DNA of 64,000 bases from a virus, in the IMG/VR virus record IMGVR_UViG_3300029390_000003, one strand, 5' to 3'. Positions 1-41,403 of the stretch are shown one piece after another. The notes under the pieces are model-generated. The model was not told the DNA's origin. It ran no database searches and saw nothing but the letters and a program-made list of their open reading frames with translations. The position numbers were made by a program, and so were the translations under genes. Each line of letters starts with the position of its first letter. Within the stretch, counting starts at the first letter, position 1.

Positions 1-263
1 GGGCTTCGTGTGTGCTCCGCAGCGGTTTAGCACTCCTTTTCTCTGAGTGCTAATTGTATTGTACTCATCTTGCTCTGAAAAATCAAGGGGTTTTGCAATT
101 TTTATGAGAAAGTTTTCAGTTTTTTAACATATCGGCATTTTATTACGTTAATTCGTGAATTATTTGTATTCAATAATCTATTATGTGCCGCATGGTATGG
201 CATATCTTCGCATATCTTGGCGTATTTTCACCAAAATTGGTGTAGTGATTGGTGTAGTAACTC

Positions 264-1421
264 TCACATCTGTGCCACTTTTGCAAACTCAGTTTTTATC
301 ATATCAGCGTCGATTGATGTGTATACATCGAGCGTAATTTGTACTGAGCTATGCCCCATTAGATATTGAACTGCCTTGATGTTCATGCCGCTGCTAACTT
401 TTCTGGTACAAAAAGTGTGTCGAAGAACGTGAGGTGTGAGATTTGGTAATTGGCACTCTGGGTAAAGGCTGTTATACGCCTTTGCAATTTCTCTTAGCTC
501 ATATTCAATGTTCCAAGAGGTCTTCGGGGTTCCATTTGAATGAATTGAGATGAAACCACAATAACCATCGACCATCATCTCGTTTGTTTGTGGCCGACGA
601 TTGATAATGGCTTTAATCGCGTGATATGCTTCAGCGCTCAATGGAATCGTCCGAAACCCAGCTTTTGATTTTGGATCTGTGATGTAGAGTTCTCCTTTTG
701 AGGTTTTGATGAGTTGTTTATCAATTACAACTTCATGTTTCACAAAATCAATGTCCGAAAGTGTTAATCCACAAAATTCACTTACGCGAATTCCAGTTTC
801 ATACAAAAATACGATGTCATCATAATACTTATGAAAGACTCGATCACATAAAACGAATTCAAGCAAATCAGAATACTGTTGTTCAGTTAATGCGACTCTT
901 TTTTTAGTGTCGTTTTTTATAACTTCATTCAGCTGAAAATCAAACGGATTCTTTAAAATTAAATCATCTTCTTGAGCCATTTTAAATGCAGCTTTTATCA
1001 GTGTTTTTATAGTTTTTATTGTACTGTATTTCAACCCATTCTGGCTCAAATCAATAATCAGTTGTTTTGCGTCTGAAATTTTTACGTCAATGATTTTTGT
1101 ATTACCGATAGACGTATCCTTCAACTTGTTTGTCGTTGTATAATATGTCTTCAAACTCGATTTCTTTATTGATGTTTTCTTAAATTCATAATATCTTATA
1201 AGAAACTGATATGTTGTTATTTTACCGCCTTCAAAATCTATCCCTTGAGAAATTATTTTACTAGCATTATTTTCTTTTTCTCGAAGAACTTTTAAATCTT
1301 TCGCATAAATTGTGTGACGTTTTCCAGTTTTATCAGTCCATCGATATTGATACATGCCATCCTTTCTTTGGCTTTCTCCATTTTTTAAAACTCTGCCTTT
1401 ACTATCTTTACGTCTTTCCAT
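264..1421 (-). CDS. int: Tyrosine-type site-specific integrase. The true start is probably the internal Met (MERRKDSKG...).
   Basis: The C-terminus has the catalytic signature HVLRHTFCTR...LMGHSSVQITLDVYTS (R, H-x-x-R and the Tyr nucleophile). The N-terminal part resembles the SAM-like DNA-binding domain of phage integrases. It is the last gene of the minus-strand array at the window edge. Confidence 0.85.
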   Translation of the reverse strand: MERRKDSKGRVLKNGESQRKDGMYQYRWTDKTGKRHTIYAKDLKVLREKENNASKIISQGIDFEGGKITTYQFLIRYYEFKKTSIKKSSLKTYYTTTNKLKDTSIGNTKIIDVKISDAKQLIIDLSQNGLKYSTIKTIKTLIKAAFKMAQEDDLILKNPFDFQLNEVIKNDTKKRVALTEQQYSDLLEFVLCDRVFHKYYDDIVFLYETGIRVSEFCGLTLSDIDFVKHEVVIDKQLIKTSKGELYITDPKSKAGFRTIPLSAEAYHAIKAIINRRPQTNEMMVDGYCGFISIHSNGTPKTSWNIEYELREIAKAYNSLYPECQLPNLTPHVLRHTFCTRKVSSGMNIKAVQYLMGHSSVQITLDVYTSIDADMIKTEFAKVAQM

Positions 1422-1494
1422 AAATAGACTCCTTACATTTACTATAAAGAGCCTTGATGTGACACTATAAGTATACCACACCAAAGCTCTGATT

Positions 1495-1689
1495 TCAAAT
1501 CGAATAAGACTGGTCTATGTATTTTTCAAGTGCTTTGCGTTTAATCAAGCGTTTTGATCCAACCCACAGCACAAGCTGCTTGTCGTCCTTGTCTGTAATT
1601 TCTCTTAATTTATGTGTGCCGATATTAGAGTACGCAGCGGCTTCTTCCACAGTAAGCGTCGTTTTTTCCCAGATTGGGACTTCTTTCAT
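1495..1689 (-). CDS. Small helix-turn-helix protein, excisionase or AlpA-like.
   Basis: It is 64 aa, sits immediately upstream of int, and has the pattern LTVEEAAAYSNIGTHKLREI typical of Xis/AlpA helix-turn-helix proteins. Confidence 0.5.
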   Translation of the reverse strand: MKEVPIWEKTTLTVEEAAAYSNIGTHKLREITDKDDKQLVLWVGSKRLIKRKALEKYIDQSYSI

Positions 1690-2513
1690 TCAATCACCTT
1701 CTCCATCTTATACTCACCATATTTCGCTACACATACATTATAAAGTAGCATGGCGCGTGTCATTAGTCCAACCCCACCGATTCGAGGAGTCACTTTGATA
1801 TCTTTCATATCATAAACAGCGTCAGCACAGTCACCGTGCTGCTTGCCGTTTTCGTCATAGTTGATACCAACATCGATACACACTTTAACCCGATCAATAT
1901 CAAACGGTATGATAAAGTTGCGCTTACCCACAGCAGAAATAATCACATCGACCATTTCAAATTCAAGAGCAGTTGCTTTCATAGCGGAACCAGTGCTATT
2001 CACAGAGATCACATTACAGTGTCGTTTAATCAGCATATCGACCAACGGACGACCTACGATATCAGATTGACCACACACAAGCGCATTCTTGCCATCCAGA
2101 TCGTAACCGATGGAGTCAAAAATCTTCATAACGCCCAGCGGAGTGCACGGCTGAAATGGAGATGTAGAATTAAAACCATCAACATCAACCGCGTCTGGAA
2201 TGCAGATATTTTGGGGGTTGATATGTTTTGGCAGTGGAAGCTGGACGATGATACCGTCCACATCTTCCCAATTATAATCTTCTAGTATCTTGTTGTTCAA
2301 TTCGTCTTCAGTGATATTTTCTGGCAGTTTGATAAGGTTTGCTTCGATTCCAACCTCTTCACAGTCACGCAGCTTGCCACGGATATAAGCATTAGACGCA
2401 GGGTTGTCCCCTACTTGATAAATATATAAAACAGGAGCGTAGTCGGCTTCTGCAATAATATTCTTGATTTTATTTTTGATGTCTTGTGCAATAGATTTGC
2501 AGTCAATAATCAT
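1686..2513 (-). CDS. folD: Bifunctional 5,10-methylene-THF dehydrogenase / methenyl-THF cyclohydrolase.
   Basis: FolD motifs are present: GIIVQLPLP, DVDGF, PCTPLG, GQSDIVGRP and the C-terminal PRIGGVGLMT. Confidence 0.85.
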   Translation of the reverse strand: MIIDCKSIAQDIKNKIKNIIAEADYAPVLYIYQVGDNPASNAYIRGKLRDCEEVGIEANLIKLPENITEDELNNKILEDYNWEDVDGIIVQLPLPKHINPQNICIPDAVDVDGFNSTSPFQPCTPLGVMKIFDSIGYDLDGKNALVCGQSDIVGRPLVDMLIKRHCNVISVNSTGSAMKATALEFEMVDVIISAVGKRNFIIPFDIDRVKVCIDVGINYDENGKQHGDCADAVYDMKDIKVTPRIGGVGLMTRAMLLYNVCVAKYGEYKMEKVIE

Positions 2514-2753
2514 TGTGAACCTCCTTTATAAGAATCCAAGTTTTATAAAATTGCTTTGTAGCCAAGATCATTTAAACACTGGCAATACCCACGGACGCCG
2601 TCCGACCCTACTTTATAAATAGAGCCAACATACTTTTTGTCTTTATCAAAAAACTCAATTCGCCATTTCCCATCACGAATATATTTAGCTCTATAAAAGT
2701 CAAAATCTTTCATTGATATTTCCCTTCATAAAACCCTAATTCTTCCATAAGAA

Positions 2754-3173
2754 TCACCTCGTTACTGTACTAACTCCATTATTTTTAATCTGTCCTTTTT
2801 GAGCATGAATTATTACAGAGTCTGCATTGACAATACTGGTCGATTTATATTCGATATACGGAGTATTACTATCGTACACAATCTGTACATGGCCTTTGAT
2901 ATTCATGTATGTGCCATTACAAAGAACCGTAAGCATCTCGTAATTTTCTGCTGGGACATTAGATACCATAGTAGATGTATATCCGTAGATACCCGGTTCC
3001 AGTTCTTCAATAGTGGCAGTCCACTTAATCGGATTATAATGACGATAGATACCGTCGCCAATCGCCCATACAAAATATCCAACAATAAGAGTAATGAGCA
3101 CACCGACTGTCAAAAACAAGATCTTTTCTCCAAGAGTGAGTTTTTCGTTATTATCATCCAAGTTCAATACCAC
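2754..3173 (-). CDS. Hypothetical membrane protein.
   Basis: It has an N-terminal hydrophobic segment (ILFLTVGVLITLIVGYFVWAI) and no recognisable domain. Confidence 0.3.
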   Translation of the reverse strand: MVLNLDDNNEKLTLGEKILFLTVGVLITLIVGYFVWAIGDGIYRHYNPIKWTATIEELEPGIYGYTSTMVSNVPAENYEMLTVLCNGTYMNIKGHVQIVYDSNTPYIEYKSTSIVNADSVIIHAQKGQIKNNGVSTVTR

Positions 3174-3642
3174 CTTCGTTTACAATATAGATACCGTTGT
3201 CTTTAAGATATTCTATAAATTCTTCGTGTGGCAACTTATCGGCAAGCTCATAAATAGTGTAGTTACTTCTGCCTTTCACCCACTTTGTTTCTTTACGCAA
3301 GCAAGACCATTGATGTACACGAAATTCCTTACAACGCCATTTTAAATGAAAGGCATCTCCGCACAAATCGCAAATCGGTATTTCTACATAAAAGTCACCC
3401 GGATAGCGTTTTCGTCGCCACCACTCCATATCATAGAATACAATACCATAGAATTCAGGATAATCTTTAAATCCATGTTCTCTAAGATAAGCAAAACCCA
3501 ATCCATTGATGGTCCATTCTGGCGACCTTGGAACTGTATATCGAAGCTGCGATTCTGTATGCGAGATACAGGCATTGTTATATTTTCCATCAATGCCCAT
3601 AATGTACCAGTCGGATTTATAATAGCCTATTTGTTTAGTCAC
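3154..3642 (-). CDS. Hypothetical protein with a Cys/His cluster.
   Basis: This 162-aa ORF is tightly packed with its neighbours and carries a CDLCGDAFHLKWRCKEFRVHQWSC cluster. Confidence 0.3.
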   Translation of the reverse strand: MTKQIGYYKSDWYIMGIDGKYNNACISHTESQLRYTVPRSPEWTINGLGFAYLREHGFKDYPEFYGIVFYDMEWWRRKRYPGDFYVEIPICDLCGDAFHLKWRCKEFRVHQWSCLRKETKWVKGRSNYTIYELADKLPHEEFIEYLKDNGIYIVNEGGIELG

Positions 3643-4099
3643 AACTAATCACATCCCCCGTATCATCACCCAACGGCCACGTGCATCCATAAAATGTTCC
3701 CAAATTTTCGATTTTAAAATAGTACCATTTCTTCGTCACGTAGTCATAAATACTGTAGCAAGTGCAGCGGCCATCCGGCCAATGGTTCTTTTTAATAGCG
3801 TCAATATCAAGTTCTAAAAATCGTTTGATTTCGGATAATTTATATGAAGCAAAAATATAATCCCATGGGCCACGCCAATGGATAAACCACATGTGCTTTA
3901 CGAAGTTCGGCCATTCTACAGAAAATCGTTCGACTGGTTTACTTCTGCCAAAATTCTTATATTGAAGAAAATAGTTGCTGATACCGTGTACACCAGTCCA
4001 ATAATGGTCTTTAGTGCAGATGAAATGAGAATAGTTTTCCCATTCTGGATTTTGTATTTCCCAGTGATTCTTTTCGATTGAAAAATCTTTATTTACCAT
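3635..4099 (-). CDS. Hypothetical protein.
   Basis: This 154-aa ORF overlaps the start of the downstream gene, and there is no intergenic gap. Confidence 0.3.
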   Translation of the reverse strand: MVNKDFSIEKNHWEIQNPEWENYSHFICTKDHYWTGVHGISNYFLQYKNFGRSKPVERFSVEWPNFVKHMWFIHWRGPWDYIFASYKLSEIKRFLELDIDAIKKNHWPDGRCTCYSIYDYVTKKWYYFKIENLGTFYGCTWPLGDDTGDVISCD

Positions 4100-4703
4100 T
4101 TACGTTACCGACTTTTAATGATTGGATTGTTATAGATACTTTTCTTTTGTTTAAAAAGATGTCTGAGATATTCAGGCGTTTGATCTGCATAATAAGTGTA
4201 TTCTAATTTGCAGCCATATTTTTTATCAAACTCTATTAGTTCTTCTTCCGTAAGAGTGCCATTCTTAATTTTCTCTAAAAATAGTTTATAGTCTTCTGTG
4301 AATGTACTACAAAATGCAAAGTCACCCATAAGTCACCTCATAAAAGTCTAGTTCTTAAAAAATAAGCTTACGCTGATATTTATTTAAAACTTCCTGAATC
4401 TCATCAACAAAACTTTCAACAGCAGAATCTGTTTTTTCTTTCTGATATTCTTCTACAGAATCTACATCAACGTCAATATTGATTACATCATTGTGGTATG
4501 GCTCTCCAGTCAAATCAATTCCATAGTTGATTTCATCGAACGGAGCCTCATACCAGTTGCCGTTTTCTCTATTAACAACCCCAAAGGTCAATTCGGTATT
4601 TTCATCATAGCCTATTTCATTCAGTTTTTTGATAAGTTCTATAACTTTCATCTCATACACCATCCTTTGATTTTCTCACACGCTCTGCAAATTGCGTCAA
4701 AAG

Positions 4704-5114
4704 TCAACTCTCGTCTGCATCAGAAACAGTTTGAAGTACGCTCTCCGCTTCTTTGCGAGCCAATCGTTGTTTATATTCTTTGTTTGCGATTCGTTCTTGC
4801 TCATGCAATTCAAGTCCTTTCAGCCAGTAAGATGGACATTCATAAATTTTTTCAAGTGTGTTTGCATCGCAAAAGTGTTCTCGATCTCTCTTATTGTAAT
4901 CGTAATATCCAATAAATGACAGACCACAATCGCTTATTACAACGTTGTCTTTTAAAAGAATCGGACGCTCATCCATGACCTTAACCCAACCGAGAAAGTC
5001 TTCGCAAGATTCGGCGCAACTATCTCTTGTTTGCTTTCTATAAGCGCATACTTCTTTATGTAGACATTTACTGCAAATAGCCATTTTTTTCTCACCTCTT
5101 TCTAAAACATACAT
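4704..5114 (-). CDS. Cys-rich hypothetical protein.
   Basis: CSKCLHKEVCAYRKQ...CAESCEDF at the N-terminus suggests zinc binding. Confidence 0.3.
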   Translation of the reverse strand: MYVLERGEKKMAICSKCLHKEVCAYRKQTRDSCAESCEDFLGWVKVMDERPILLKDNVVISDCGLSFIGYYDYNKRDREHFCDANTLEKIYECPSYWLKGLELHEQERIANKEYKQRLARKEAESVLQTVSDADES

Positions 5115-5141
5115 TCTTGAAAATAAACTTGCTTTGGCATA

Positions 5142-5441
5142 TTATTTTTCTTTATCGCAAATTCTGCAATACCGATGAAACGGAGATTCGATAATCTGCC
5201 AAAATATAGGTTTCCACTTGTGTTTATTAAAGATACGGCTGTTCTCCATAATATCAACCGGATAAGAACTAGAATCACATTCAGGACAGTTGTATTTCAA
5301 ATCACAATAATTGGCTGGCTTGAACTCTCCAAGAGAATCTGCATCAACCCAAAACTCGCAACCGCAGCTAGAACATCTAAACTCTACTGAGTATTTTGTT
5401 TTTTCTCTTTCTTTACCATGGACTTCAATTCGTATAGCCAT
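5142..5441 (-). CDS. Small zinc-ribbon protein, paralog 1 of 3.
   Basis: It starts MAIRIEVHGKEREKTKYSVEFRCSSCGC...CPECD. A GAGGTG ribosome-binding site lies upstream of the internal ATG. Confidence 0.45.
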   Translation of the reverse strand: MAIRIEVHGKEREKTKYSVEFRCSSCGCEFWVDADSLGEFKPANYCDLKYNCPECDSSSYPVDIMENSRIFNKHKWKPIFWQIIESPFHRYCRICDKEK

Positions 5442-5449
5442 TTGGCACC

Positions 5450-5683
5450 TCAATCCACAAAAATCTTTTCTCTTGGAACTGTAGATAAACAAGATGAAAC
5501 TTCTGTGTTGCATTCTGGGCAAATCGCCTGTTTAACCGGTGAGTATTCAGTCCAATCAAATTCTTTTGGAATTTTCGTATCTTCTTCATCAGCCCAAAAT
5601 ACGCATCCACATTTACAAAGGAATTTAACGGCATATCTTGTTTTCTTTCGCTCATGTTTGTGTTCAATAATCTTAATCGCCAT
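5450..5683 (-). CDS. Small zinc-ribbon protein, paralog 2 of 3.
   Basis: MAIKIIEHKHERKKTRYAVKFLCKCGC...CPECN has the same architecture as paralog 1. A GGAGGTG ribosome-binding site precedes the ATG at 5683. Confidence 0.45.
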   Translation of the reverse strand: MAIKIIEHKHERKKTRYAVKFLCKCGCVFWADEEDTKIPKEFDWTEYSPVKQAICPECNTEVSSCLSTVPREKIFVD

Positions 5684-5903
5684 CTGGCACCTCCACGGTA
5701 AAAATAGTTTTAGTTGCTTCTTTCCAAGAAATAAACTCAGCCCCAGCAACTTCCGCTCTACATCTATAGCACGCAATCACATTATTCTCAGGAATGTCCA
5801 AATCAGGATTTTCAAAAGAAGCCACTCGAATCTTAGTTGTACAACCGCAATTCTTACATGGAAATACGATTACCGGATTTTTTAAACTATCAGTCTTATG
5901 CAT
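5673..5903 (-). CDS. Small zinc-ribbon protein, paralog 3 of 3.
   Basis: CKNCGCTTKIRV...CYRCR. It is third in the tandem array. Confidence 0.4.
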   Translation of the reverse strand: MHKTDSLKNPVIVFPCKNCGCTTKIRVASFENPDLDIPENNVIACYRCRAEVAGAEFISWKEATKTIFTVEVPDGD

Positions 5904-7509
5904 ATCTACGCCTCAATCCGCAAACACAAACGATGTATTAAAAAAATTCGATCCAATAATCATATTTTCTTCGGACAAAGCGACTTTGATAATCTCATCG
6001 TCAGTATACGTTTCATCATATTCTGCTGTGTCGCAGACTTTGTATATCTCGCCGTCTTTATTTTGGAACAACGTTCCTTTACCAAGTTTTAATGGTTCTG
6101 TTTTCTTTTCTTCTCGAATATGTGCTTTCATGTATTTATTCCTCCCACCCACCCGTAAAATTTACCTTTTACCAGAATGAATATTTCGTTCTAATTGAAG
6201 GTGTTTCTACACTTTTTGCAGGATTTTCCAGCATCGCGGCCTTCGCCGTGATTTCATCGATACTCTTTTGGAAATCCTGTAGCTTCTTCAATTCGCTTTC
6301 GATGTCCAGTTTCACTTCGACATTCTCGATAAACCCCATATCCTCAAGGCATTTGCAGTAGCCAGCAATCTCGTTATAGAAGATGTGGTTGTACTCTTCC
6401 AAAAGCGTATGCCCGTCAAACAGCTTTACTTGCCATGCAATTCCAAATGGAGCTTCTTTCTCGTAATGAGATTCGACAGTGTAATACTTCATACATACCT
6501 CAAATCAGCTTAATACCTTCTGGTTTAACATAATAAACAGAATTATTATACTTAACTACAAGATAACATCCATAAAGATTTTGAATCATCTTTTGAATAT
6601 ACACCTCAGCACCTTTTGGGATATCTTCCTTGTGTAAGGCAAGTGCAGTTTTCCAATCTTCGTCCATGAGATTTTCCAAAGCAACGCCTTTGCGCCCAGT
6701 GTATCTATCGTACATTATGTATTCTCCTTACTTAATGCCGTACTTAGCTTTGACCTTCTTCAAAGTCTCACTCTTGTTGTGATAGTCATCGCGAGCTGCC
6801 TGATAAGAAGTCATCTTCTCTGCAAGGACACGCTTTGCTTCGGCCTCTGCAACGTCAGCCTCTGCCAGCTCCTTGTTCAAAACAAAGCCGCTCGTCTTGA
6901 TACCATCAATAAAACCATCCATGCGATCCTTCTTGACACTCTTCTCGCCCATTGCACCAGTATCAGTGTTAAACATCTTCACAACAGAATCTTCGACACC
7001 AGCGATATTGTAAACGTAAAAATATTTAGCCATAATTTAATTCTCCTCGATCTTTTCAAACTTATAAACTGTATTCTCAGTCTGGACAATAACATTTTTC
7101 TTGTCACTTGAGATGTAATAATCAACAACACAAGATGTGTGCATTGCGCCCGGATAATCATGTCCATCATTATCTTTGATGTATCGGAAACCAGCTGATT
7201 CTCCGATCTTCAGATGCACGATTTTCATTGTCATGCCAATCCAAGTTAGATACCAGCCGTCGTTTCGAGTGCGGCCAGTTACCAGTGAGATTGCGTTCGT
7301 CAGCTCGTACTGATTTTCCATAATCTCATCATCAATCGGATTTTTATGAGTCAATGCAGCATTCGGCATCTTTTCAATTGTGCGTGTCAAAAGAAGCATG
7401 AAATGCATAAACGCATCATGCTTATCCTGCTCAGCATCGATTTCTGCGTACTTGCCCATCCGATACAGAAGCTCGGACGTATCGATTGTCTTTCCCATAA
7501 ACACCTCGA

Positions 7510-8043
7510 TTACTGTTTTCCAGTAGAACCAAACCCACCGGCTCCACGCTCAGTTTCGTCCAATTTGGAAACTTCTTCAAAATCAGCCTGCCAAAACGGA
7601 ACAACTGCCATCTGAGCAATGCGGTCGCCATGAGTAATCATCTGCGGGATGTTGGAATAGTTGTGGAGAGGAATAATGATCTCTCCACGATAATCCTGGT
7701 CGATGATTGGCACAGCGTTTACAGGTGCAAGTCCCTGCTTTGTGGAAAGACCGCTGCGGGCGAAGCCCTGAATGTACCAACCTTCCGGCGGAGCCATTCG
7801 CAAACCAGTATGTACCTTAACGGTCTCATGCGGCTGAATCATAATACAACGATCGCCATTCTTGTTTACCATCGTTGCATCATCAAAACCAATATAGGCA
7901 TACAGGTCTGCACAAGCAGCATTTGCAGAACCATAAGTCGGCAGATGAGCGTCATCGTGCAATTTGTTGATTTTAATGTTGGGGCGATACGGCATCTGAC
8001 TCATGCCATAGCCAAGATTAATAGTTGTGTTTCCTAAATCCAT
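7510..8043 (-). CDS. dut: dUTP diphosphatase.
   Basis: All five dUTPase motifs are present: AACADLYA, GFARSGLS, PVNAVPIIDQDYRGE, and the C-terminal RGAGGFGSTGK. Confidence 0.85.
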   Translation of the reverse strand: MDLGNTTINLGYGMSQMPYRPNIKINKLHDDAHLPTYGSANAACADLYAYIGFDDATMVNKNGDRCIMIQPHETVKVHTGLRMAPPEGWYIQGFARSGLSTKQGLAPVNAVPIIDQDYRGEIIIPLHNYSNIPQMITHGDRIAQMAVVPFWQADFEEVSKLDETERGAGGFGSTGKQ

Positions 8044-8044
8044 G

Positions 8045-8599
8045 TTATTTTCCTTTCTCTTCTGGAGTCCACCAAAGGACTGGTCTTCGCAAAGCAAAAC
8101 TCTTATTACAGCCGATTACACGTTGATTGGAACTCCCCATGTACGGCAAAGAGATATCTCGTTTAGATTCAATATATGGGCCATCGACTAGCACGTTTAT
8201 GTTTCGAATAATTGTTACCGTTGTCGGAATAGTTTGATATTCCAATTCTTCTGCCGCCTGTTGAATCAATTCTTCCCATGTATATCCAGTCCACATCCAA
8301 ATGTCTTTGCTTCCTTCAAACTCGTGTCTGACTCTTATTAGAATTTTGCAAATCATCTCCCTGTTCTCTGGATACAGTGGATCTCCACCAGTAAGCGTAA
8401 GCCCCTGAATATAATCAGGTCGAAGTAAATCTACAATTTTATCAAGCGTTTCATCAGTGAATGGCTGACCACCATTCGGGTCCCATGTGGTAGGATTTTG
8501 ACAACCTGGACAATGGTGATCACAACCCTGCACGAAAAGTGTGACACGCACCCCTTCACCATTTGCTATATCACATGGAACGATTTTAGCGTAGTTCAT
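8045..8599 (-). CDS. nrdG: Anaerobic ribonucleotide reductase activating protein (radical SAM).
   Basis: The sequence CDIANGEGVRVTLFVQGCDHHCPGCQNPTTWD, then TLTGGDPL and GSSNQRVI, is the NrdG pattern (CxxxCxxC variant with the G-rich SAM motif). Confidence 0.8.
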   Translation of the reverse strand: MNYAKIVPCDIANGEGVRVTLFVQGCDHHCPGCQNPTTWDPNGGQPFTDETLDKIVDLLRPDYIQGLTLTGGDPLYPENREMICKILIRVRHEFEGSKDIWMWTGYTWEELIQQAAEELEYQTIPTTVTIIRNINVLVDGPYIESKRDISLPYMGSSNQRVIGCNKSFALRRPVLWWTPEEKGK

Positions 8600-8874
8600 T
8601 TTCCAACCTCGATTAAAAGACCGCAGAACGGGCAACAATTATAGCCAAGGCTTTCTGGCGACTCTTGCCCTTTAATTTCGCCACCACAACAATCACACAC
8701 CCATGCCGAGCTCTCACAATTATCTACGAACTCAAATACAGTTGTTGGCTGGCGATCTACTTGAAAATCAATAACTCGTTCAACATCTTTTAGAGTTTTG
8801 ATATGTCCAAGATTTCCTTCCAGCAAAAGACAATCTTTTAATCTATCAGCATTAACCAGTTTTATGTAGTTCAT
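8596..8874 (-). CDS. Small zinc-ribbon protein.
   Basis: It carries two CxxC pairs (CDCCGGE...CCPFCG). Confidence 0.3.
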   Translation of the reverse strand: MNYIKLVNADRLKDCLLLEGNLGHIKTLKDVERVIDFQVDRQPTTVFEFVDNCESSAWVCDCCGGEIKGQESPESLGYNCCPFCGLLIEVGK

Positions 8875-9064
8875 TTAAAACACCACCGTCCACATACTTG
8901 CACAAACGATAATAAAAACATTTAGCGCGACGCAGCCATACATTCCATTCTTCTTATCGCCTCCAAAAATATATGTAGAGGTATCATACAGAATCTGCTC
9001 GGAGCGAATTACAGTTGCGGTTAAAAGCAAAATAATATAAGCTTTGGTTGTAAGCCAAGTAATC

Positions 9065-9442
9065 TCAGTCAACATCGATTAACACCTCCTCGACAGGAAT
9101 AATCTGACCATCAACATAGTAGCACATCTGACCGTACTCATTATAATAAGGAGACATATAGCCGTAGCCTCGATTGACTGCACCTTTATAAAATAAGTAA
9201 TACATAATGTGTGTATCCTTGTTGTATACCATAGGTGTATCACTGATACGATAGAACCAGTCATTCTCTACAGCTGCATTCCCCACTGAGTCTTTCACAC
9301 TTGTACTGCATCCAGTCAGTATAATAGCTGCTAGAAGTATGCATACGACAGTATTTTTGAAATTCTTAAACATATATTTCCTTTCTGTTAAAAGCGGAAT
9401 TCTATCAAAATTTGTTATAAATTTATTGCGATAATGCGTCAA
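9065..9442 (-). CDS. Lipoprotein.
   Basis: It has a signal peptide with a lipobox (AAIILTGCSTS). Confidence 0.5.
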   Translation of the reverse strand: MTHYRNKFITNFDRIPLLTERKYMFKNFKNTVVCILLAAIILTGCSTSVKDSVGNAAVENDWFYRISDTPMVYNKDTHIMYYLFYKGAVNRGYGYMSPYYNEYGQMCYYVDGQIIPVEEVLIDVD

Positions 9443-11875
9443 ATAATTTTACTGAAATTTGGAATTTCTTAGCTTTTTGTCAAGCTTTGTTTCTCTCTCC
9501 GTCATGTAGCGCCAATATACTACCGTATCAGCAACCTCATAATAATCAGTATCATACCACTCACCATTAAATGTGATGCACGCAACGCTTTCTGTTCCGT
9601 CCTTGTATTTTATGATGACATCCTCTGAACACATTCCGTGCTCTGGGACTGGAGGAGTTACGTCTTTCGCGCAAAACCATCGTGCATCGATGCTTTCTTC
9701 TTCGTATGAAACCAACTTTATATTATGATAACAACGCTCGAGTCTATCGCAGATGTCGCCTTTAATGGGGTTGATGTCCTCGTCTCCGTTTTCATCAACC
9801 AGAAGTTCAAGTGTTACTTTCTTCATGCTCGTTCTCCGTTAAATAACGCCAATAATCAGGTGACTTCAAGTACGTCATCACGCCGTCAGGCATCCAATTG
9901 CCATATTTTGAGTACCACACTTTAACTTCTCTCTCGCCGTATTTTGCCATAACGGTGCTACAAAGTTTTGGGAGATTCACCGCTGGGATATTCCAGTCAT
10001 CTAACTCTACTTCCGGCCAGTCGATTCTAGCTCCGCAGTTACCACAGTAACCATTACGGTTACCATCTTCATTAAAGAGATATTCACCGCTGCCACAGCA
10101 CTGGCAGGCAATAATACCTTTTTCTGCAAAAGGATTGTTAATCATTTTTAGCCTCGATTTCTTTCCATCCAATGAAATCACAAATACAAAGCTTCTCTGG
10201 ATCACACCGATGAAGCAGGAATTTGTTCTGTCCAGAAAGCCTAGACCCGCCAGACACTTCAACGGGTTTACACCCATCTTGAAACATTCCTGAAAGAGTC
10301 CATTTCTCAGCAATAGATAAATCAACATCATTTTTAATGATATCGCGATTGCATCCACGGCATTTAAAGATTTTTACGTATTTCTTCTCCATATTACCTC
10401 AGTACCCTTATCATCGGCAGTGTCGTTTTTCATATCATCAAAGAAAGATTCATAATCAAACCACTTATCCTCAAGAATATTGCCGATAATTTTTACTGTA
10501 CTACCCCAGCCTTTAGTTGCCACACGGATATACTTGTCTTTCATGTTCTCGTACTTATCGCAGCCAACAGTGTCCATGATTCGCATGATGGCTTCCATAC
10601 CAGAAGCATATCCTTTGAAAGTTTTTGCTCCTACATATCCTTTACCAAGAACATATCCTCCATAGCAAACGCCCCATCCATGACCATCCAACGTCAAATC
10701 AGAAGTCAAAACTCCATGATCGGCCATGTTAAGGCTAACATTCTTGATTTGTGCATTTCGGATCTCGTATCCTTCAGCTTCAAGCAGCTTTTCTGTCCGC
10801 TTCTTCATTTTGTCTCCTGTTATTTAACGTATCTACGTTATAAATTTGATAGAATTTTACGATAAAACGGCACTTTTATCAAGGTTCATTTTCCCTCTCT
10901 ATAATGCCGGACATTTCCATAATTTCAAAGAAATCATCCATTAAAGCTTCTGCCATCTTTCTGGAGATTTTAGGAAGTTTTAAACCGAAATCCTTGAATG
11001 CACAATTAAGGCAACCCCAAGGCGCTAGAACAAATTTTTCATCATCGTCTTTGGAATTGATGTTTTCATAGATAACGCTATCGTCTTCCACCTCAGCCAC
11101 CTGCCTTTTCTGCGTTGTGAATCATGCAGTTCATGTTAGGATGCGCCTTCTCAAAGCGATGATGTGCCTTATTCATAGCGTCATTCTGATCCTGCGCCTT
11201 TACCATATATGTATTGAATGCCTGATTCCCATCATCGTAATACATTACTTCAACAGACCAATAATCCATATAGCTCCTTTCATGCCACCACACCCACCCT
11301 ACTAGTTTATTTATTTACCTCGGCTACCTTTGATAAAACATTCAAGCAAAATCAGTATCAGCCAGATACCGGTTGCTACTTTGATGGTAAACATAATATT
11401 CAGCAGCTTAAAAATCAGCCAGATAATACCGATCGTGGTAATCCACGAGATAAAATATGTAGCCACAAAAATCAGAATGATTCCAAGAAAAGAACCAAGT
11501 GCCTTAAAGAATTTCTTCCATGCGTTTATGTTAATCACCTTCTTTCAAAAATTTTCATTTTATAGTTCCTTTTTAATGCACTGGTTGGTCAGTTTCTTGT
11601 ACACATCCTCATACAGTTCCTGTTTATCACCGTTGTAGGTGTACTCAGCATAGATACCGTCACCGCTGACGGTGGTAGAAAGCAGCGCCTTGTAGTTCTG
11701 GAGCGTCTTGCAACTCCAAACCACAAAGACGTTCTCCAGCGTAATTTTATTGGACATATGATCGTTATACCACTTAACCAGTGCGTTCTTACAAACGCTC
11801 TCGTAATGTACCATACCTGTAATAATCATAATTAAGCCTCCTTTTTGAACACGAATGTAATCCAATAGATGTTAT

Positions 11876-12727
11876 TTACTCACCCTTGGTAACGACTGTA
11901 TCTGCGCCCTGAACGGTGATCCAACCATGCTTCAGACGAGCTTCTGCTTCCTTCATCTGAATCAACTCAGGAGTGATAGACTCGGAAAGCACCTTATTCG
12001 CATCAGCCTCAGCCTGTGCTTCAATCATCTTAACATCAGCTTCCGTCTGTGCCTTAACCTTATCAGTCTCTGCCTGAGCTAGGGCGGTCTGCTTATTCAG
12101 CTCTGCAATCTCTGCGTCCTGCTTCGCCTGCTCCTTTGCGCGAATCTTCTGCATCAATGTATCGTCAGGCTGTGCGTCAACAATCAGTGCAGAAGAAACA
12201 TTGATACCATATTCTGCGGTCAGCTTCTCATTCAGATAATCGGTGATTGCAGTATTAACACCTGCACGATCATCAGAGTAAATCTGCATGACACTGAACT
12301 GAGGAGTGACTTCCTTAACATAAGCAATAATGTCGTTCTGGATTTTACTCTCCATCAGGCTCTCGCCGTCCATACCACCAAACTTGGTGTACAGTTCAAC
12401 AACATGTTCCGGCAGGAAGTTATAATTGACAGTCAGGTTGATTGCAATTGTACCGCCATTAGCAGGGGCATCGATATGCCAATCTGCGTGTTCCTTTGCG
12501 CCATAGTCGGACGGAGCATTAGAGAATACCACTCGCTGCTGAGTAATCGGGAACTCAGATACATGCTTCAGAGGACTCATAAAGTGCCAGCCCTGAGAAA
12601 TGGTCTGCTGCTCAACTCCCTTTGCGGAGTAAACAACACCAACATAACCAGTATGTACCCGCTCAGTACAAAGCACTGCACCAACTGCAACGAGGAATGC
12701 AACAAAAATTGCCATAAATTTCTTCAT
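11876..12727 (-). CDS. SPFH/band-7 (prohibitin/HflK-like) membrane protein.
   Basis: It has an N-terminal signal anchor and an SPFH core. The C-terminus is a coiled coil (KIRAKEQAKQDAEIAELNKQTALAQAETDKVKAQTEADVK). Confidence 0.7.
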   Translation of the reverse strand: MKKFMAIFVAFLVAVGAVLCTERVHTGYVGVVYSAKGVEQQTISQGWHFMSPLKHVSEFPITQQRVVFSNAPSDYGAKEHADWHIDAPANGGTIAINLTVNYNFLPEHVVELYTKFGGMDGESLMESKIQNDIIAYVKEVTPQFSVMQIYSDDRAGVNTAITDYLNEKLTAEYGINVSSALIVDAQPDDTLMQKIRAKEQAKQDAEIAELNKQTALAQAETDKVKAQTEADVKMIEAQAEADANKVLSESITPELIQMKEAEARLKHGWITVQGADTVVTKGE

Positions 12728-13198
12728 AAGTATCTCCTTAATCTTTGTAGTTATCTTTCAAAACGTAATAGGCGATAACCCATACAATCACAAAGAAAAC
12801 AATGATTTCTTTCATATGTAATCCCACCAACCCACCACTTGTATTCAAATTTTACTTCATACTCTCTTCGAGTTCTTTGTAGCTGATTCCACTTGTCAGT
12901 CCCGGAGACTCTTCACTATCCGTTCCTTTGAAATGCGCTCCAACAACACTAGGATGCAAATATTCAATCATTGCAAAATTAGCAACATCAATGAGCCATT
13001 CTGTATTTCCTGTCTCTAAATACTTTTTGACTCTTGGATAAATTTCCTTTACAGCTTGAGCCAAATCTGGATATGTCTGATTCATCCAACCATATTTATA
13101 ATGAGATACCAAAATACGATTCTGCATCTTTTTAACAAAACCATTATCCCAATCTCGCTCTAAAATCTGTTGTGTAGTATCCATATTTTATCCTTTGT

Positions 13199-15394
13199 TT
13201 AGTTATCGCTCAAATGAACCACACGATCCTTGATCTCCTGCGTGCGTCCCTGGTTCCAGAACTGAGTCCCAATAAAACCGCAGGTACGTCGTGCAACATT
13301 CAGTTTATTCTGGTCACGATTACCACAGTTCGGGCATTCCCAAATGAGCTTGCCGTTATCTTCAACAATCTTAATCTCGCCGTCATAGCCACAAACCTGA
13401 CAATAATCAGACTTGATGTTCAGCTCTGCGTAGATAATAGTGTCGTAGATGTATTTGATGACACTCATCACAGCGGGGATGTTGTTGGTCATGTTCGGGC
13501 ATTCAATATAAGAAATCGCTCCTCCGGGAGACAGCTGCTGAAACTCAGACTCAAACTTCAGCTTCTTGAATGCATCAATATGCTCACGAACCACGACATG
13601 ATAGCTATTGGTGATGTAATCATGGTCGGTTACATCTGGAATGATGCCGAACCGCTTCTGCAGGCACTTGGCGAACTTGTAGGTGGTGGATTCCAGCGGG
13701 GTGCCGTAGAGACTGTAATCAATATTTTCTGCTGCCTTCCACTCACTGCACTTGTCGTTCATGTGTTGCATAATCTCAAGAGCAAAAGGTTTTGCTTCAT
13801 CATCAGTATGGCTCTTACCGGTCATGTACTTTACGCATTCATACAGACCTGCGTAACCTAAACTGATGGTTGCATATCCGTCAAACAGCAATTTATCAAT
13901 CTTCTCGCCCTTCTTCAAACGTGCGATTGCACCATGCTGAAAATGAATTGGACTCACATCAGAAGGCGTACCCATCAATCGCTTATACCGAATCTGAAGT
14001 GCTCGATGGCACAGTTCAAGACGCTCATCAAAAATTTCCCAAAACTCAGAAACATCCTTCTTAGAGCTACAAGCAACATCTACCAGATTGATGGTGACAA
14101 CACCGGCATTAAAGCGACCATAGTACTTGTGGCCCTTCTCCCAATTCATGGCACCAGAAACATTCTCGGTGGTTCGATCAGGAGTCAAGAAGCTGCGACA
14201 TCCCATACAGGGGTAGCAAGCACCTTTGTACTCCAACATCTTCTTCTCAGAAATGTAGTCAGGTACAAATCTCTTGGCCGTACATTTAGCTGCCAGTTCA
14301 GTCAGATAGTAATACTTAGAATTATCTCGAATGTTATCTTCTTCCAGCACATAAATCAGCTTTGGGAAAGCCGGAGTAATCCATGCACCAGTCTCATTCT
14401 TCACGCCTTTAATACGCTGACGAAGGACTTCTTCAATGATAATTGCAAGGTCATCACGGGTCTGGCCTTCAGGAACTTCATCCAGATACATAAAAATAGT
14501 AATAAAAGGAGCTTGCCCGTTAGTGGTCATCAAAGTAATAACCTGATACTGAATAGTCTGAACGCCTGCAACGATTTCTTTATGTAAACGCTTCTCTACA
14601 ATTCGATTGATAGTCTCCTGATTTGGCATCTTGTCAATCTCATTGTTTTGAATCATGTCGTAAAACTCCTCATGGACTTCACCCGTAATCTTCTTTCGAG
14701 AGACGTCCACGAAAGGAGCCAAATGAGACAGAGTAATACTCTGACCACCATATTGGTTGGAAGCAACCTGTGCAATAATCTGGGTTGCAATATTGCACGC
14801 TGTAGAGAAACTATGTGGTTTGTCGATTCCAGTGCCAGAAATCACAGTGCCGTTTTGAAGCATGTCTTCCAGATTGACTAGCGAGCAGTTAAACATGTGC
14901 TGGGCAAAATAGTCGGAATCGTGAAAATGAATTCGGCCATCATAGTGAGCGTCCACAATATCTTTCGGGAGAAGCAGATTGAAGCTCAGATCTTTGGAGA
15001 CCTCGCCAGCCATATAGTCACGCTGCACGCTATTCACAACAGGATTTTTGTTGCTGTTTTCCTGCTTGACCTTCTCATTGTCTACATCACAGATGGAAAG
15101 AATTTCGCCATATGCTCGCTGTTTCTCACGAATCTCCTGCCGAAGAATACGCCAGTGACTATAAGCGTCAGCCACATCCGAAAGAGGGCTATTTTTCAAC
15201 TGGTCAATAACCACATCCTGAATCTGCTCTACAGACATCGTATCATGGATGTCCGCGATGTAGTCTGCAATAGCGTTAGATACGCGAGAATCAACTCCTC
15301 CAGTCGTATTCGTCATTGCCTTCTCAATCGCATTTACAATCTTACTTTTATCAAAAGGAACTTTCGTTCCATCGCGTTTAATCACATATTCCAT
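13199..15394 (-). CDS. nrdD: Anaerobic ribonucleoside-triphosphate reductase, class III (start at the internal MEYVIKRDG).
   Basis: There is an ATP-cone at the N-terminus, then the large catalytic domain. The C-terminal Cys cluster (CQVCGYDGEI...CPNCGN) and the glycyl-radical motif RRTCGFIGTQFWNQGR are present. Confidence 0.9.
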   Translation of the reverse strand: MEYVIKRDGTKVPFDKSKIVNAIEKAMTNTTGGVDSRVSNAIADYIADIHDTMSVEQIQDVVIDQLKNSPLSDVADAYSHWRILRQEIREKQRAYGEILSICDVDNEKVKQENSNKNPVVNSVQRDYMAGEVSKDLSFNLLLPKDIVDAHYDGRIHFHDSDYFAQHMFNCSLVNLEDMLQNGTVISGTGIDKPHSFSTACNIATQIIAQVASNQYGGQSITLSHLAPFVDVSRKKITGEVHEEFYDMIQNNEIDKMPNQETINRIVEKRLHKEIVAGVQTIQYQVITLMTTNGQAPFITIFMYLDEVPEGQTRDDLAIIIEEVLRQRIKGVKNETGAWITPAFPKLIYVLEEDNIRDNSKYYYLTELAAKCTAKRFVPDYISEKKMLEYKGACYPCMGCRSFLTPDRTTENVSGAMNWEKGHKYYGRFNAGVVTINLVDVACSSKKDVSEFWEIFDERLELCHRALQIRYKRLMGTPSDVSPIHFQHGAIARLKKGEKIDKLLFDGYATISLGYAGLYECVKYMTGKSHTDDEAKPFALEIMQHMNDKCSEWKAAENIDYSLYGTPLESTTYKFAKCLQKRFGIIPDVTDHDYITNSYHVVVREHIDAFKKLKFESEFQQLSPGGAISYIECPNMTNNIPAVMSVIKYIYDTIIYAELNIKSDYCQVCGYDGEIKIVEDNGKLIWECPNCGNRDQNKLNVARRTCGFIGTQFWNQGRTQEIKDRVVHLSDN

Positions 15395-15405
15395 GCAATC
15401 ACTCC

Positions 15406-16182
15406 TTAATCTTCCAACCAACGATTTTCTGCCACATAGAAAGCTCCAACCGCAACTACCATCAATACGACCCAGAATACCCAAAACCAAATCACTCGTG
15501 TACCAGCTGCAGAAATCATATAATCTCGTGCTTCTTCGATGTTTTTATCCTTAATGAATTGTGCATCATGTATACTTTTATCGCTCAAATTCGCGTATAA
15601 TGTACCACCATAACGAACATCTTTGACATAAAACTCGAACTTTACATGAGAACTGACTTGTACAGTGGTCAGGTACTTGCTGGATGGCATTTTGATGTCA
15701 CCATACTTAAATTCTTTTCCCAGAAACGTTACATTTTTGGAACTGTGCTCTTCTGAGCTGTAATAGTCCCAAGTCCAGTACGTTTCGACTCTTGTTCTTG
15801 TATGGCCTTTACCATCCGTAGTAGTGACAGTTCGTGTATGCATCGTATAGTGCTTTTCTTCGCAATAGATGTACATCCACTGGCCGTCGATACGTGGATC
15901 GCTTACGGTATCTACTGCTTCTAGTGCGCCTTGGCAAAACGCATTACCTACGTTGGTTCTCATTCCATAATCGAACATATTTTCGGACTCAATCGAAATT
16001 GCTGTATTATATTCTTTTTTCTGCTCAAGTGAATCTCTGGTGATATTTCCAGCGATAACGCTACCAAGTATCAGCATAATGAACACAATACCAACACTGA
16101 CGATCAATTCACGATAAGTAATTTCGGCATTACCGATTTCCAAAAAGGTTACCGACTGCCGGTGCCGCCTCATTCCCCTCAT
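15406..16182 (-). CDS. Membrane protein, possibly a partner of LemA (TPM/DUF2207-like position).
   Basis: It has an N-terminal transmembrane helix and a C-terminal multi-helix hydrophobic block (VIWFWVFWVVLMVVAVGAFYV). It lies directly downstream of lemA. The start is uncertain. Confidence 0.35.
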   Translation of the reverse strand: MRGMRRHRQSVTFLEIGNAEITYRELIVSVGIVFIMLILGSVIAGNITRDSLEQKKEYNTAISIESENMFDYGMRTNVGNAFCQGALEAVDTVSDPRIDGQWMYIYCEEKHYTMHTRTVTTTDGKGHTRTRVETYWTWDYYSSEEHSSKNVTFLGKEFKYGDIKMPSSKYLTTVQVSSHVKFEFYVKDVRYGGTLYANLSDKSIHDAQFIKDKNIEEARDYMISAAGTRVIWFWVFWVVLMVVAVGAFYVAENRWLED

Positions 16183-16687
16183 AGGACAGATACTCATAAT
16201 TCTGAACCTCATATCCAGTCAGACCAAGCAGAAATGAGTTCGGAAACTTACGAACGCTCTGCTTATATTCCTTCACGACACGATTGTAATCGCCACGATA
16301 GTTTGCAATCAAATTTTCAGTGACGGATAGCTCATTCATAAGCTCCTTGTAGTTGTCGCTAGACTTCAGTTCAGGATATGCTTCCGCAATAGCTGCAATC
16401 TGAGTCGTAATCTCTTGAGCGGTCTGGCCGGAAGTGCCACGAGCATTCACAACATCCATCAAAGTCTGATACTCATGTTGGTCATAAGCCTTGACGGTTT
16501 CAACCAGATTTGGAATCAGATCAGCTCTGCGCTTCTCCTGATTCCCAATGCCAGACTTAGCTTCCTGAATCTGCTCTTCATAAGAGATGGCCGTGTTCTT
16601 AGGTCCCTGCACAATAAAGGTCATGCCAAGAATGGAAATTAACACGACACAAATAACGATAATAGGTAACTTCCAGTTGTATCTCAT
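16130..16687 (-). CDS. lemA: LemA-family membrane protein.
   Basis: It has an N-terminal transmembrane helix and the LemA pattern NQEKRRADLIPNLVETVKAY...VVNARG. Confidence 0.7.
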   Translation of the reverse strand: MRYNWKLPIIVICVVLISILGMTFIVQGPKNTAISYEEQIQEAKSGIGNQEKRRADLIPNLVETVKAYDQHEYQTLMDVVNARGTSGQTAQEITTQIAAIAEAYPELKSSDNYKELMNELSVTENLIANYRGDYNRVVKEYKQSVRKFPNSFLLGLTGYEVQNYEYLSYEGNEAAPAVGNLFGNR

Positions 16688-16700
16688 TTATGTAAACCTC

Positions 16701-17231
16701 TTAAAACTTGACTTCATCGACATGGACTTTAGAGTTCAGCATCGAATGGTCAACCTTATTAACTCCTTTGTTATTCGGAGACATAGCATCATTATGAACA
16801 CTCGGAACCACGGCAGTTTCGATGTTCTGCTCGTATGCGTTTGGACGATAAACACAATCGTTTACCCAACAATTAAGTCTAGGATCGTAAAAATTTCCTT
16901 GGCTGTCTTTTTTCGGCATCGTAGCCAGCTTATCATTTGCCTCATCAGGAATCTTCTTGAGCGTATCTACGACACTTTCGGCAATCTTCTGCTGTTCCTC
17001 TAAAAGCCGGATTTTATAGTCCAAATACCAACGTGCCTTCGTTAAATCTTGAAGCTGAGAATTACCATCTTTGTGCCCTGCCCGACTCAGATACTTACCA
17101 ACATTCCAAAGATAAGCATCCTTGTCCAGTTGCCACTCTCGCAGTACTTTGATGGCCTCGTAGGGATTGTCTGCACCGCCGTAATAAGACGGGTGCTCGA
17201 CGTTCTTCTTAATTTCGTCAAGTGTTTGCAT
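16701..17231 (-). CDS. DUF3310-like phage protein.
   Basis: VEHPSYYGG...EAIKVLREW...GNVGKYLSRAGHK...DLTKARWYL matches my recollection of the DUF3310 pattern, which is common next to thymidylate synthase in phages. Confidence 0.45.
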   Translation of the reverse strand: MQTLDEIKKNVEHPSYYGGADNPYEAIKVLREWQLDKDAYLWNVGKYLSRAGHKDGNSQLQDLTKARWYLDYKIRLLEEQQKIAESVVDTLKKIPDEANDKLATMPKKDSQGNFYDPRLNCWVNDCVYRPNAYEQNIETAVVPSVHNDAMSPNNKGVNKVDHSMLNSKVHVDEVKF

Positions 17232-18009
17232 TTAATGCCTCCTGTTTCAGTTTGTCGTATTTATCACGAATCTCGTGGAGCTTACCACAAGACATCATAC
17301 CTTCAGTACAACCGTTACCACAGCAGTTGGGGCCAGCACACTTAAACAGATGAGGAGCAATCGGATAGACAAGCTTTAGCATCTCAGTTGCAAGTTCCCT
17401 GATTTCAGACTGTGCACGTTCACAGCAACGCAGATTAAAGAAATTATTCAACGAACGAGCGTTCATTGTAACAATCATCTTTGTAGAACAAGCATTTGGA
17501 AGAACAGAACGTGCATTCTCATTTGCAATCTTAGATGCCTTTGCACGTGCCTTTTTCTCAGTCAAACGAGAATCAGCAACCATCAGTTCCTCAGTAATCT
17601 TGTCCTCAAGAATCTGGCACAGGTGCTTATAGGAATATTCAGCAGTCTGAATTGCCTGTTCAAATACCTCTCTTGCTTCGCTATCATCGTCAATAACATC
17701 AGGAATGATGATTTCAGCATTATTCATTCGCACATAGCGCTGACTCTGCACACTGAACGATGCAATGCGATGCCTAGTAATCTGGGCAAGCAAAGACCGG
17801 CTCACACCTTCAATTCCAAAAGTAAAAGTCACATGCTCCGTAGGGCTAGCGTGACCAAGGCTAGAAAGCCGATTCAGAAACTCATCGACCTTCTCATCGG
17901 TCAGTCCATCCATCAGATCCTGAATACTCGAATTGGAGTAACACAGTTTTGCGGCTGCAGCTACTACCTTTTCAGGATCAGGAGTATGTGTAATCAGTTT
18001 AACTACCAT
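17218..18009 (-). CDS. thyX: FAD-dependent thymidylate synthase.
   Basis: The ThyX signature RHRIASFSVQSQRY (RHRxxSxxxxSxR) is present. The N-terminus MVVKLITHTPDPEKVVAAAAKLCYS is typical. Confidence 0.9.
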   Translation of the reverse strand: MVVKLITHTPDPEKVVAAAAKLCYSNSSIQDLMDGLTDEKVDEFLNRLSSLGHASPTEHVTFTFGIEGVSRSLLAQITRHRIASFSVQSQRYVRMNNAEIIIPDVIDDDSEAREVFEQAIQTAEYSYKHLCQILEDKITEELMVADSRLTEKKARAKASKIANENARSVLPNACSTKMIVTMNARSLNNFFNLRCCERAQSEIRELATEMLKLVYPIAPHLFKCAGPNCCGNGCTEGMMSCGKLHEIRDKYDKLKQEALNANT

Positions 18010-33633: not shown

Positions 33634-33674
33634 CCTTAAACCCAGAAGTTCCTGTCTTTTCCTGAGAGTTGTTC

Positions 33675-41094: not shown

Positions 41095-41176
<82 letters not shown>

Positions 41177-41181
41177 ATAAA

Positions 41182-41396: not shown

Positions 41397-41403
41397 ATAT
41401 AAA

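Follow-up and report, generated by a model that had tools for sequence, protein, structure and literature searches.

The window analysed here is the whole 64,000-nucleotide stretch of the IMG/VR virus record IMGVR_UViG_3300029390_000003. Near its left end it carries a folD gene, encoding a compact homologue of the bifunctional 5,10-methylene-tetrahydrofolate (THF) dehydrogenase/5,10-methenyl-THF cyclohydrolase, which runs directly into the excisionase (xis) and integrase (int) genes of a temperate phage of Faecalibacterium prausnitzii. Further along the same strand lie the genes of the thymidylate synthase ThyX, the class III anaerobic ribonucleotide reductase (RNR) NrdD with its activase NrdG, and a dUTPase (Table 1); Pfam matches bear out this co-occurrence with a phage-borne FolD, to which a preliminary description of the DNA had drawn attention.

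The folD gene and its product

The list of open reading frames (ORFs), Pfam, PHROG and a structural model agree on an intact folD at 1686-2513, exactly where the preliminary description had placed it. The N-terminal catalytic domain of the product matches PF00763 (E 3.6e-28, 98.6 bits against a gathering score of 32.8) and the C-terminal Rossmann NAD(P)-binding domain PF02882 (E 1.5e-34, 119 bits against 27), in agreement with a match to PHROG 7320, 'tetrahydrofolate dehydrogenase and cyclohydrolase' (E 6.9e-60). The AlphaFold2 model, predicted from a 77-sequence alignment of the nearest cluster representatives, has a mean predicted local distance difference test score (pLDDT) of 93.4 and a predicted template modelling score (pTM) of 0.92. 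Every one of its top 50 Foldseek matches in the PDB is a FolD or MTHFD1/2, with TM scores of 0.84-0.88 for the best superpositions on solved FolD/MTHFD structures.

In the human enzyme, the key residues for substrate binding and catalysis are Tyr52, Lys56, Gln100, Leu101, Asp125, Gly273 and Gly276 (PMC3368264), and the roles of the catalytic residues, including Pa Tyr50/Lys54, are also described in PMC3338484. All seven human residues have counterparts in the aligned phage FolD (Y43, K47, Q91, L92, D112, G246/G247 and G249), and its glycine motif reads IGGVGLMT (residues 245-252). Y43 and the catalytic lysine K47 of the YxxxK motif are invariant across the 77-sequence alignment. Scored over S40, Y43, K47, Q91, D112 and the C123-T124-P125 motif, the catalytic set is complete in 79 of 80 related IMG/VR alleles, the same 79 being intact. 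With the fold and all catalytic residues kept, the protein is predicted to be catalytically competent, and to judge by all sequence tests folD is a genuine functional gene.

Table 1. Coordinates of folD, the integration module and companion genes in the window
Feature	Position	Strand	Basis and remarks
Host DNA, groESL promoter -10 at 58-63	1..77	-	Same as upstream of groES in F. prausnitzii contigs
att core, attR copy, ~26 bp, AAAAATTGCAAAACCCCTTGATTTTT	78..103	-	attR/attP/attB alignment
int, tyrosine integrase with Tn916-type N-terminal DNA-binding domain	264..1484	-	PF00589 + PF02920; PHROG 1
xis, Tn916-type excisionase	1495..1689	-	PF09035, E 6.9e-21; PHROG 16129
folD, bifunctional 5,10-methylene-THF dehydrogenase/5,10-methenyl-THF cyclohydrolase homologue, compact short-loop form	1686..2513	-	ATG start, 275 aa
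~17 small co-directional ORFs between dUTPase and folD	2543..7504	-	ORF map
dUTPase	7510..8097	-	PF00692, E 4.4e-19
NrdG, class III RNR activase, radical SAM	8045..8638, likely start 8599	-	PF13353 (Fer4_12), E 4.7e-48; PF04055
NrdD, class III anaerobic RNR	13199..15490, likely start 15394	-	PF13597, E 8e-190; PF03477 ATP-cone; PF01228 Gly_radical
ThyX, flavin-dependent thymidylate synthase, 5,10-methylene-THF consumer	17218..18009	-	PF02511, E 2.3e-69

Residence in a Faecalibacterium prophage

Base composition places folD with the phage. Its guanine-cytosine content (GC) is 41.7%, and 40.9% at third codon positions (GC3), compared to 41.2% for the window and to 60% (GC3 76%) for the host groEL; overall, the phage has a GC of ~41% and the host of ~57%. 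The ratio of nonsynonymous to synonymous substitution rates (dN/dS) is 0.068 against two diverged relatives, with a median of 0.089 and a range of 0.054-0.154 among the 80 IMG/VR alleles, 67 of them distinct. Location inside a viral genome, viral composition and purifying selection across the lineage, three of the marks of an auxiliary metabolic gene (AMG), are found here. In MT835556, FolD is 90% identical and Int merely 43%, and FolD therefore follows the phage backbone, not a given integration module.

An exhaustive search over 1.84 billion cluster representatives returned, after FolD's own cluster, a next cluster at 61% identity, with all others at 50% or less. Six neighbours, at 61, 46, 45, 45, 43 and 39% identity, were examined in their genomic context, and all six lie in phage-like contigs, among them one in which FolD accompanies ERF, SSB, DnaB, Dam, RusA, dUTPase and dCMP deaminase genes, an SPbeta-like YonD/YonG contig and a Phage_VG64 contig. 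A scan of genome contigs returned only prophage copies and pattern-driven Geobacter matches. The composition, selection, linkage and neighbour data provide strong but indirect support for a FolD lineage that has probably long resided in phages, as part of a phage FolD radiation. We note that in contig L135 (499-6608) FolD stands directly after an NAD-salvage set, consisting of a nicotinamidase-like isochorismatase, a phosphoribosyltransferase, NAMPT and NAD synthase.

The prophage boundary was determined by aligning attR at the left end of the window, attP in contig L005 and the empty attB sites upstream of groES in the complete F. prausnitzii genomes CP157369.1 and CP094472.1, which together define the att core. 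From attR, folD is located 1.6 kb inside the prophage, and at the empty attB sites no folD is present beside groES. In most long related contigs, int is followed by ~320 bp and then by groES and groEL. In the 137-kb contig L005, a circular form, int is instead followed by an AroD-like gene, an M15 lysin, a holin and tail-fibre-like genes, while folD again lies upstream of xis-int amid phage genes, so that phage genes flank it on both sides; this junction is the attP of a circular or replicative form. The preliminary description had named one case that would remove folD from the phage, namely that it is host flanking DNA, with the prophage ending between xis and folD. The attR/attP/attB comparison refutes this, leaving it practically no probability, as the prophage/host junction lies beyond int at the groESL promoter, the GC of folD is far from the ~60% of host genes and its nearest relatives occur in phage contigs; nothing but the closeness to int and xis speaks in its favour. 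GroES and GroEL in the flank have sequences identical to proteins of F. prausnitzii, a strict gut anaerobe of the Clostridia, in agreement with the anaerobic gut or clostridial host expected beforehand.

The recombinase, its Tn916 arm-binding domain, the Xis and the adjoining att constitute a Tn916-type integration module, and arm-type motifs ACTACACCA(A/C)T are repeated on either side of the attP core. Gene callers place the start of int at 1421, yielding 385 aa, the length also called in related contigs. The -35 hexamer of the host groESL promoter (81-86) falls within the att core, and a perfect controlling inverted repeat of chaperone expression (CIRCE) operator, TTAGCACTC-N9-GAGTGCTAA, can be read from the sequence on the host side at 27-53. 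In the lysogen, the -35 element of this promoter and everything upstream of it are phage-derived, and the -10 element and the CIRCE (HrcA) operator belong to the host, with a possible effect of integration on chaperonin expression.

Towards att, the gene order is ThyX - DUF3310 - LemA - NrdD ... NrdG - dUTPase - ~17 small variable ORFs - FolD - Xis - Int, and the 122 sizeable ORFs, which span 94.7% of the window, are all on the minus strand. The folD gene has a strong Shine-Dalgarno sequence, AAGGAGG, 7 nt ahead of its ATG and is separated by 29 nt from the preceding ORF, and its stop codon overlaps the xis start in an ATGA at 1686-1689, an overlap retained in 69 of 80 related loci. The small ORFs upstream (2543..7504) gave no Pfam or PHROG match. 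Their region is mosaic: blastn against the related contigs L002, L004, L005, L007 and L010 places a recurrent breakpoint at ~2546-2552, immediately before the ribosome-binding site of folD. The gene directly upstream of folD varies (56, 136 or 157 aa; L001, L004, L007, L010), with folD-xis-int remaining collinear. The different upstream genes of L004 prompted the idea of folD as cargo of a portable int-xis module; it was rejected, since blastn reveals L004 as a rearranged relative of the same phage and since FolD in MT835556 follows the backbone and not the integrase.

A terminator scan detected no minus-strand terminator-like site in window 1-8000, from dUTPase to int; those at 8000-20000 are weak and inside genes. 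Promoter-like matches were no more frequent than in shuffled sequences, and all that is taken from the scans on transcription units is that no terminator separates dUTPase from int. The folD gene closes a long block of co-directional, early-type genes that enters xis-int. Inside folD, at 2271-2300 (-), a sigma-70-like sequence with 10 of 12 matching positions (TTGAAC-18-TATAAT) could drive xis-int independently of folD, but this is only a lead.

The exact FolD protein occurs in 279 blocks of a public contig collection, always in the order FolD-Xis-Int, and near-identical homologues number in thousands. Such a very high prevalence would be accounted for if folD were a lysogenic-conversion moron, i.e. 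if FolD made from the resident prophage aided the F. prausnitzii lysogen, for instance through extra one-carbon capacity. The position at the prophage end and the promoter-like match at 2300-2271 are compatible with this, as is the report that K01491 (FolD), like thymidylate synthases, is commoner in control-enriched gut viral operational taxonomic units (vOTUs; PMC11938785). We nevertheless consider a moron improbable. The autonomous promoter and terminator and the atypical composition that characterize morons are not found for folD, which equals the phage in GC, lacks a separate terminator, has a stop codon overlapping xis and shares orientation and tight spacing with ~120 lytic-type genes; moreover, co-transcription of folD and xis in an uninduced lysogen would destabilise it. 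Together with the retention of folD when the integrase is swapped, the same features run counter to the 'odd cargo-like position' initially ascribed to the gene. The contrast is provided by the other prophage end, where the AroD-like gene of L005 (12734-13486, minus strand; a type I 3-dehydroquinate dehydratase, PF01487, GC 43%) lies across attP from int, next to the genes for lysin and holin, with hairpin/T-tract terminator-like sequences on either side. This gene looks like a true moron. The shikimate pathway supplies para-aminobenzoate and folate, and a link between the AroD-like gene and FolD via folate supply is speculative.

At least 80 IMG/VR relatives have a FolD that is 85-94% identical. 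Because most of them are contigs of 100-151 kb that end just past int, the whole phage is estimated at ~125-150 kb, of which the window represents about half; virion structural or packaging genes were not found within the 64 kb. The window encodes a DnaE-type polymerase, RecD2-like and DnaB-like helicases, a primase, RecJ and a ligase for replication, besides a Pnkp/RNA-ligase repair enzyme, methyltransferases, anti-repressor-like genes and eight tRNAs; NrdG is called as 184 aa in relatives. Megablast against deposited phages returned a single partial relative, and two papers on Faecalibacterium phages (PMC11792537, PMC8857322) make no mention of this phage, of groEL integration or of folate genes.

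Further observations concern other parts of the window. The tRNA cluster (40358-47525; Met, Gly x2, Leu x3, Gln, Pro) is accompanied by the 739-aa Pnkp/RNA-ligase enzyme (41889-44108; PHROG 8238, E 1.7e-226), a MazF/PemK-like toxin (45160-45579) and an RlaP RNA-repair nucleotidyltransferase (46773-47525), which together look like a set of tRNA-repair genes for counter-defence. Membrane-associated SPFH/Band-7 and LemA proteins (11876-12727 and 16130-16687) are located within the nucleotide-metabolism block, and the LemA-ThyX neighbourhood recurs in a distant relative, L136. Two phosphoadenosine phosphosulfate (PAPS)-reductase-like ORFs of 254 and 138 aa stand side by side at 32869-34091 and may be a split gene or a pair of PP-loop enzymes of the DNA-modification type. 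In mid-genome, one ORF (44180-45106) has a weak integrase-family match (PHROG 5830, E 4e-10) and another (51539-52378) clearly encodes a tyrosine recombinase (PHROG 216, E 1.2e-40); dimer resolution and inversion are possibilities for these.

Proposed one-carbon supply to ThyX

ThyX converts dUMP and 5,10-methylene-THF to dTMP and THF. The THF can be reloaded by serine hydroxymethyltransferase (GlyA), or by formate-THF ligase (Fhs) followed by FolD operating in reverse, from 10-formyl-THF through methenyl-THF to methylene-THF, and class III RNR classically takes formate as its reductant. All F. prausnitzii strains examined encode Fhs (bioRxiv 10.64898/2025.12.30.697052), and the reductive formate route is therefore available in this host.

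Based on the gene content of the window and on comparisons to other phage contigs, we propose the following role, which we favour on balance with modest confidence. A functional phage FolD would equilibrate the formyl- and methylene-THF pools in the lytic phase, with net flow towards ThyX. The enzyme would, as we infer, be made during induction and lytic replication alongside the nucleotide-metabolism enzymes, raising the capacity to interconvert 10-formyl-, 5,10-methenyl- and 5,10-methylene-THF. Formate would enter through host Fhs as 10-formyl-THF and be passed on to methylene-THF by reductive FolD, complementing the supply from serine and GlyA.

The proposal is supported by gene neighbourhoods. 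In L138 (7001-9164), a long-loop FolD abuts ThyX upstream, followed by thymidine kinase, between DnaB and primase/PolA, which appears to be the clearest neighbourhood evidence for a link between FolD and thymidylate synthesis. In L136 (1487-12160), with a FolD that is 45% identical, the order is ThyX-LemA ... guanylate kinase/NT5C fusion - FolD - NrdD - NrdG, where NrdD is interrupted by an HNH gene and NrdG is followed by a gene of the formate/nitrite transporter family (FocA-like). This transporter may act for NrdD, for the Fhs-FolD route or for the two together, and the presence of such a channel beside a class III RNR and FolD hints that both draw on formate as a common currency. The proximity of FolD to ThyX in these unrelated phage contigs supports a probable functional link.

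Several observations weigh against the proposed flow to ThyX. No genes for Fhs, GlyA, dihydrofolate reductase (DHFR) or purine synthesis were found among the window ORFs scanned. FolD alone cannot reload THF, which takes GlyA, or Fhs plus reductive FolD, and the preliminary statement that FolD regenerates 5,10-methylene-THF was thus too strong; for the same reason, the 'self-contained' dTMP route suggested there becomes one that needs host Fhs or GlyA. In addition, ThyX and other deoxynucleotide-metabolism genes are missing within 7-8 kb of FolD in three of the six phage contexts examined besides this one, and in a fourth dUTPase and dCMP deaminase are the only such genes. Lastly, FolD in most bacteria runs oxidatively, from methylene-THF to 10-formyl-THF, a direction that would compete with ThyX.

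This oxidative direction forms the main rival to the ThyX-feeding role: serine-derived methylene-THF would be turned into 10-formyl-THF for purines (PurN/PurH) and for formylation of the initiator Met-tRNA. We judge it unlikely, though with an appreciable chance. It agrees with the usual physiological reaction (scheme in PMC3368264), with a tRNA-Met(CAT) among the eight phage tRNAs, with the need of the phage for purine dNTPs through NrdD and with the three of six phage FolD contexts that lack ThyX and other deoxynucleotide genes nearby. However, purine-biosynthesis or formyltransferase genes were not found in the window ORFs scanned, host Fhs yields 10-formyl-THF straight from formate, so that an extra FolD is less needed, and FolD stands beside or near ThyX in L138 and L136.

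The protein also departs from the canonical enzyme, and this counts against the proposed role as well. The best NCBIfam score is 189 bits, far under the FolD equivalog cut-offs (333-559 bits; 421 for the best-scoring model, NF010786), with 25 of 25 listed models under cut-off. Between DVDGF and PCTP, the HPxNxGxL segment (~10-12 residues) is deleted (DVDGFNSTS-PFQPCTP), a gap seen directly in all five printed PDB alignments and implied by matched-region lengths for all 25 matched solved FolD/MTHFD sequences. In the human and Leishmania enzymes, the NADP 2'-phosphate is liganded by Arg173, His196 and Ser197 (PMC3368264). The phage equivalents are Q149, N172 and S173, i.e. two of three ligands are changed, and fixed so in the lineage; the only low-confidence stretch of the model, residues 171-190 with pLDDT 67-75, falls at this 2'-phosphate region. 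The loop deletion and the changed ligands account for a score under every NCBIfam FolD cut-off, which indicates a divergent lineage and not a non-member. E. coli FolD likewise lacks the arginine (GAS motif) and yet uses NADP, so that the changed triad is compatible with membership of the family but bars a firm assignment of the cofactor. Hence, kinetics and cofactor use may differ from those of canonical FolD.

A more radical reading of these departures is altered function, where one activity is lost, the cofactor is switched, e.g. to NAD(H), or the protein serves another folate step such as DNA base modification. Low scores, the missing loop and the lineage-wide Q149/N172 in the poorly modelled region would all fit, but we give this only a slim chance, as the catalytic and substrate-binding residues are all kept under strong purifying selection, the E. 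coli enzyme uses NADP without the arginine and the phage ThyX is a standard Thy1-family protein.

The short-loop form is common to 55 of the 77 nearest cluster representatives. The idea that it is specific to phages holds only in part, since a long-loop FolD, P0219, also occurs in a phage-like contig beside ThyX; the short loop thus seems frequent among phage FolDs without being exclusive to them. A tentative extension, which we regard as rather doubtful, is that these proteins form a compact short-loop subfamily of anaerobe phages, with a partial loss of the NADP 2'-phosphate ligands (Q149 and N172 here), possibly NAD(H)-preferring and reductive, for formate-fuelled dTMP synthesis via ThyX. 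If true, such phages would run a formate-fuelled deoxynucleotide programme independent of serine/GlyA and DHFR.

F. prausnitzii, whose numbers are depleted in inflammatory bowel disease, is a keystone producer of butyrate, and the prophage lineage described here is extremely widespread in human gut metagenomes. The set of ThyX, NrdD/NrdG, dUTPase and FolD indicates which host pathways possibly limit phage replication, namely Fhs/formate, serine/GlyA and folate supply, and suggests where diet or antifolates might act on the lysogeny-lysis balance. It is a speculative thought that the lineage explains part of the control-enriched folD and thymidylate synthase AMG signal (PMC11938785). Being abundant and compact, this FolD offers a convenient first case for phage FolD biochemistry.

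Relation to known systems

Phage-encoded FolD is an already catalogued kind of gene. Deposited proteins with 91-94% identity comprise Caudoviricetes entries named 'MAG TPA: 5,10-methylene-tetrahydropholate dehydrogenase' and RefSeq WP_118553111.1. The preliminary view that FolD is relatively uncommon as a phage AMG holds for isolated phages, with FolD in 54 of 50,697 deposited phage records; it fails for gut viromes, as a Chinese gut virus catalogue counts K01491 in its 50 most frequent AMGs (PMC11938785). The literature searched yielded catalogue mentions only and no paper on the function of a phage FolD.

Compared to cellular FolD (C. jejuni 3P2O, E. coli 1B0A, P. aeruginosa 4A5O) and the dehydrogenase/cyclohydrolase domains of human MTHFD1/2, the phage protein has the same two-domain fold and shares the YxxxK, VQLPLP, DVDG, PCTP and GGVG motifs, but is just 30-38% identical, with the short loop, two of three NADP ligands changed and phage composition. 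Other viral FolDs of PHROG 7320/K01491 are known from Lak megaphages, the jumbo Vibrio phage D479 and uncultured gut Caudoviricetes, e.g. DAX49370.1. The Lak and Vibrio copies are only 33-37% identical to the protein described here, which differs from other viral FolDs in forming a lineage specific to an F. prausnitzii temperate phage and in being joined in a probable operon to xis-int.

In the pL operon of phage lambda, the path into xis, int and att leads through delayed-early genes and the accessory exo-xis region, which is variable. The block studied here resembles it in being co-directional and early-type, with many small accessory ORFs and an end at xis-int-att. It differs in that Int and Xis are of the Tn916 type and that a metabolic enzyme is the last gene before xis, with co-transcription being likely from the gene arrangement.

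Functional parallels are the T4-type module of td ThyA and frd DHFR and the replacement of ThyA by ThyX in jumbo phages. The logic is shared, in that a phage thymidylate synthase is paired with an enzyme that keeps its folate co-substrate available (PMC7824862). However, ThyX releases THF and not dihydrofolate, making DHFR unneeded, and FolD accordingly would join the formyl and methylene pools where the T4-type partner reduces dihydrofolate.

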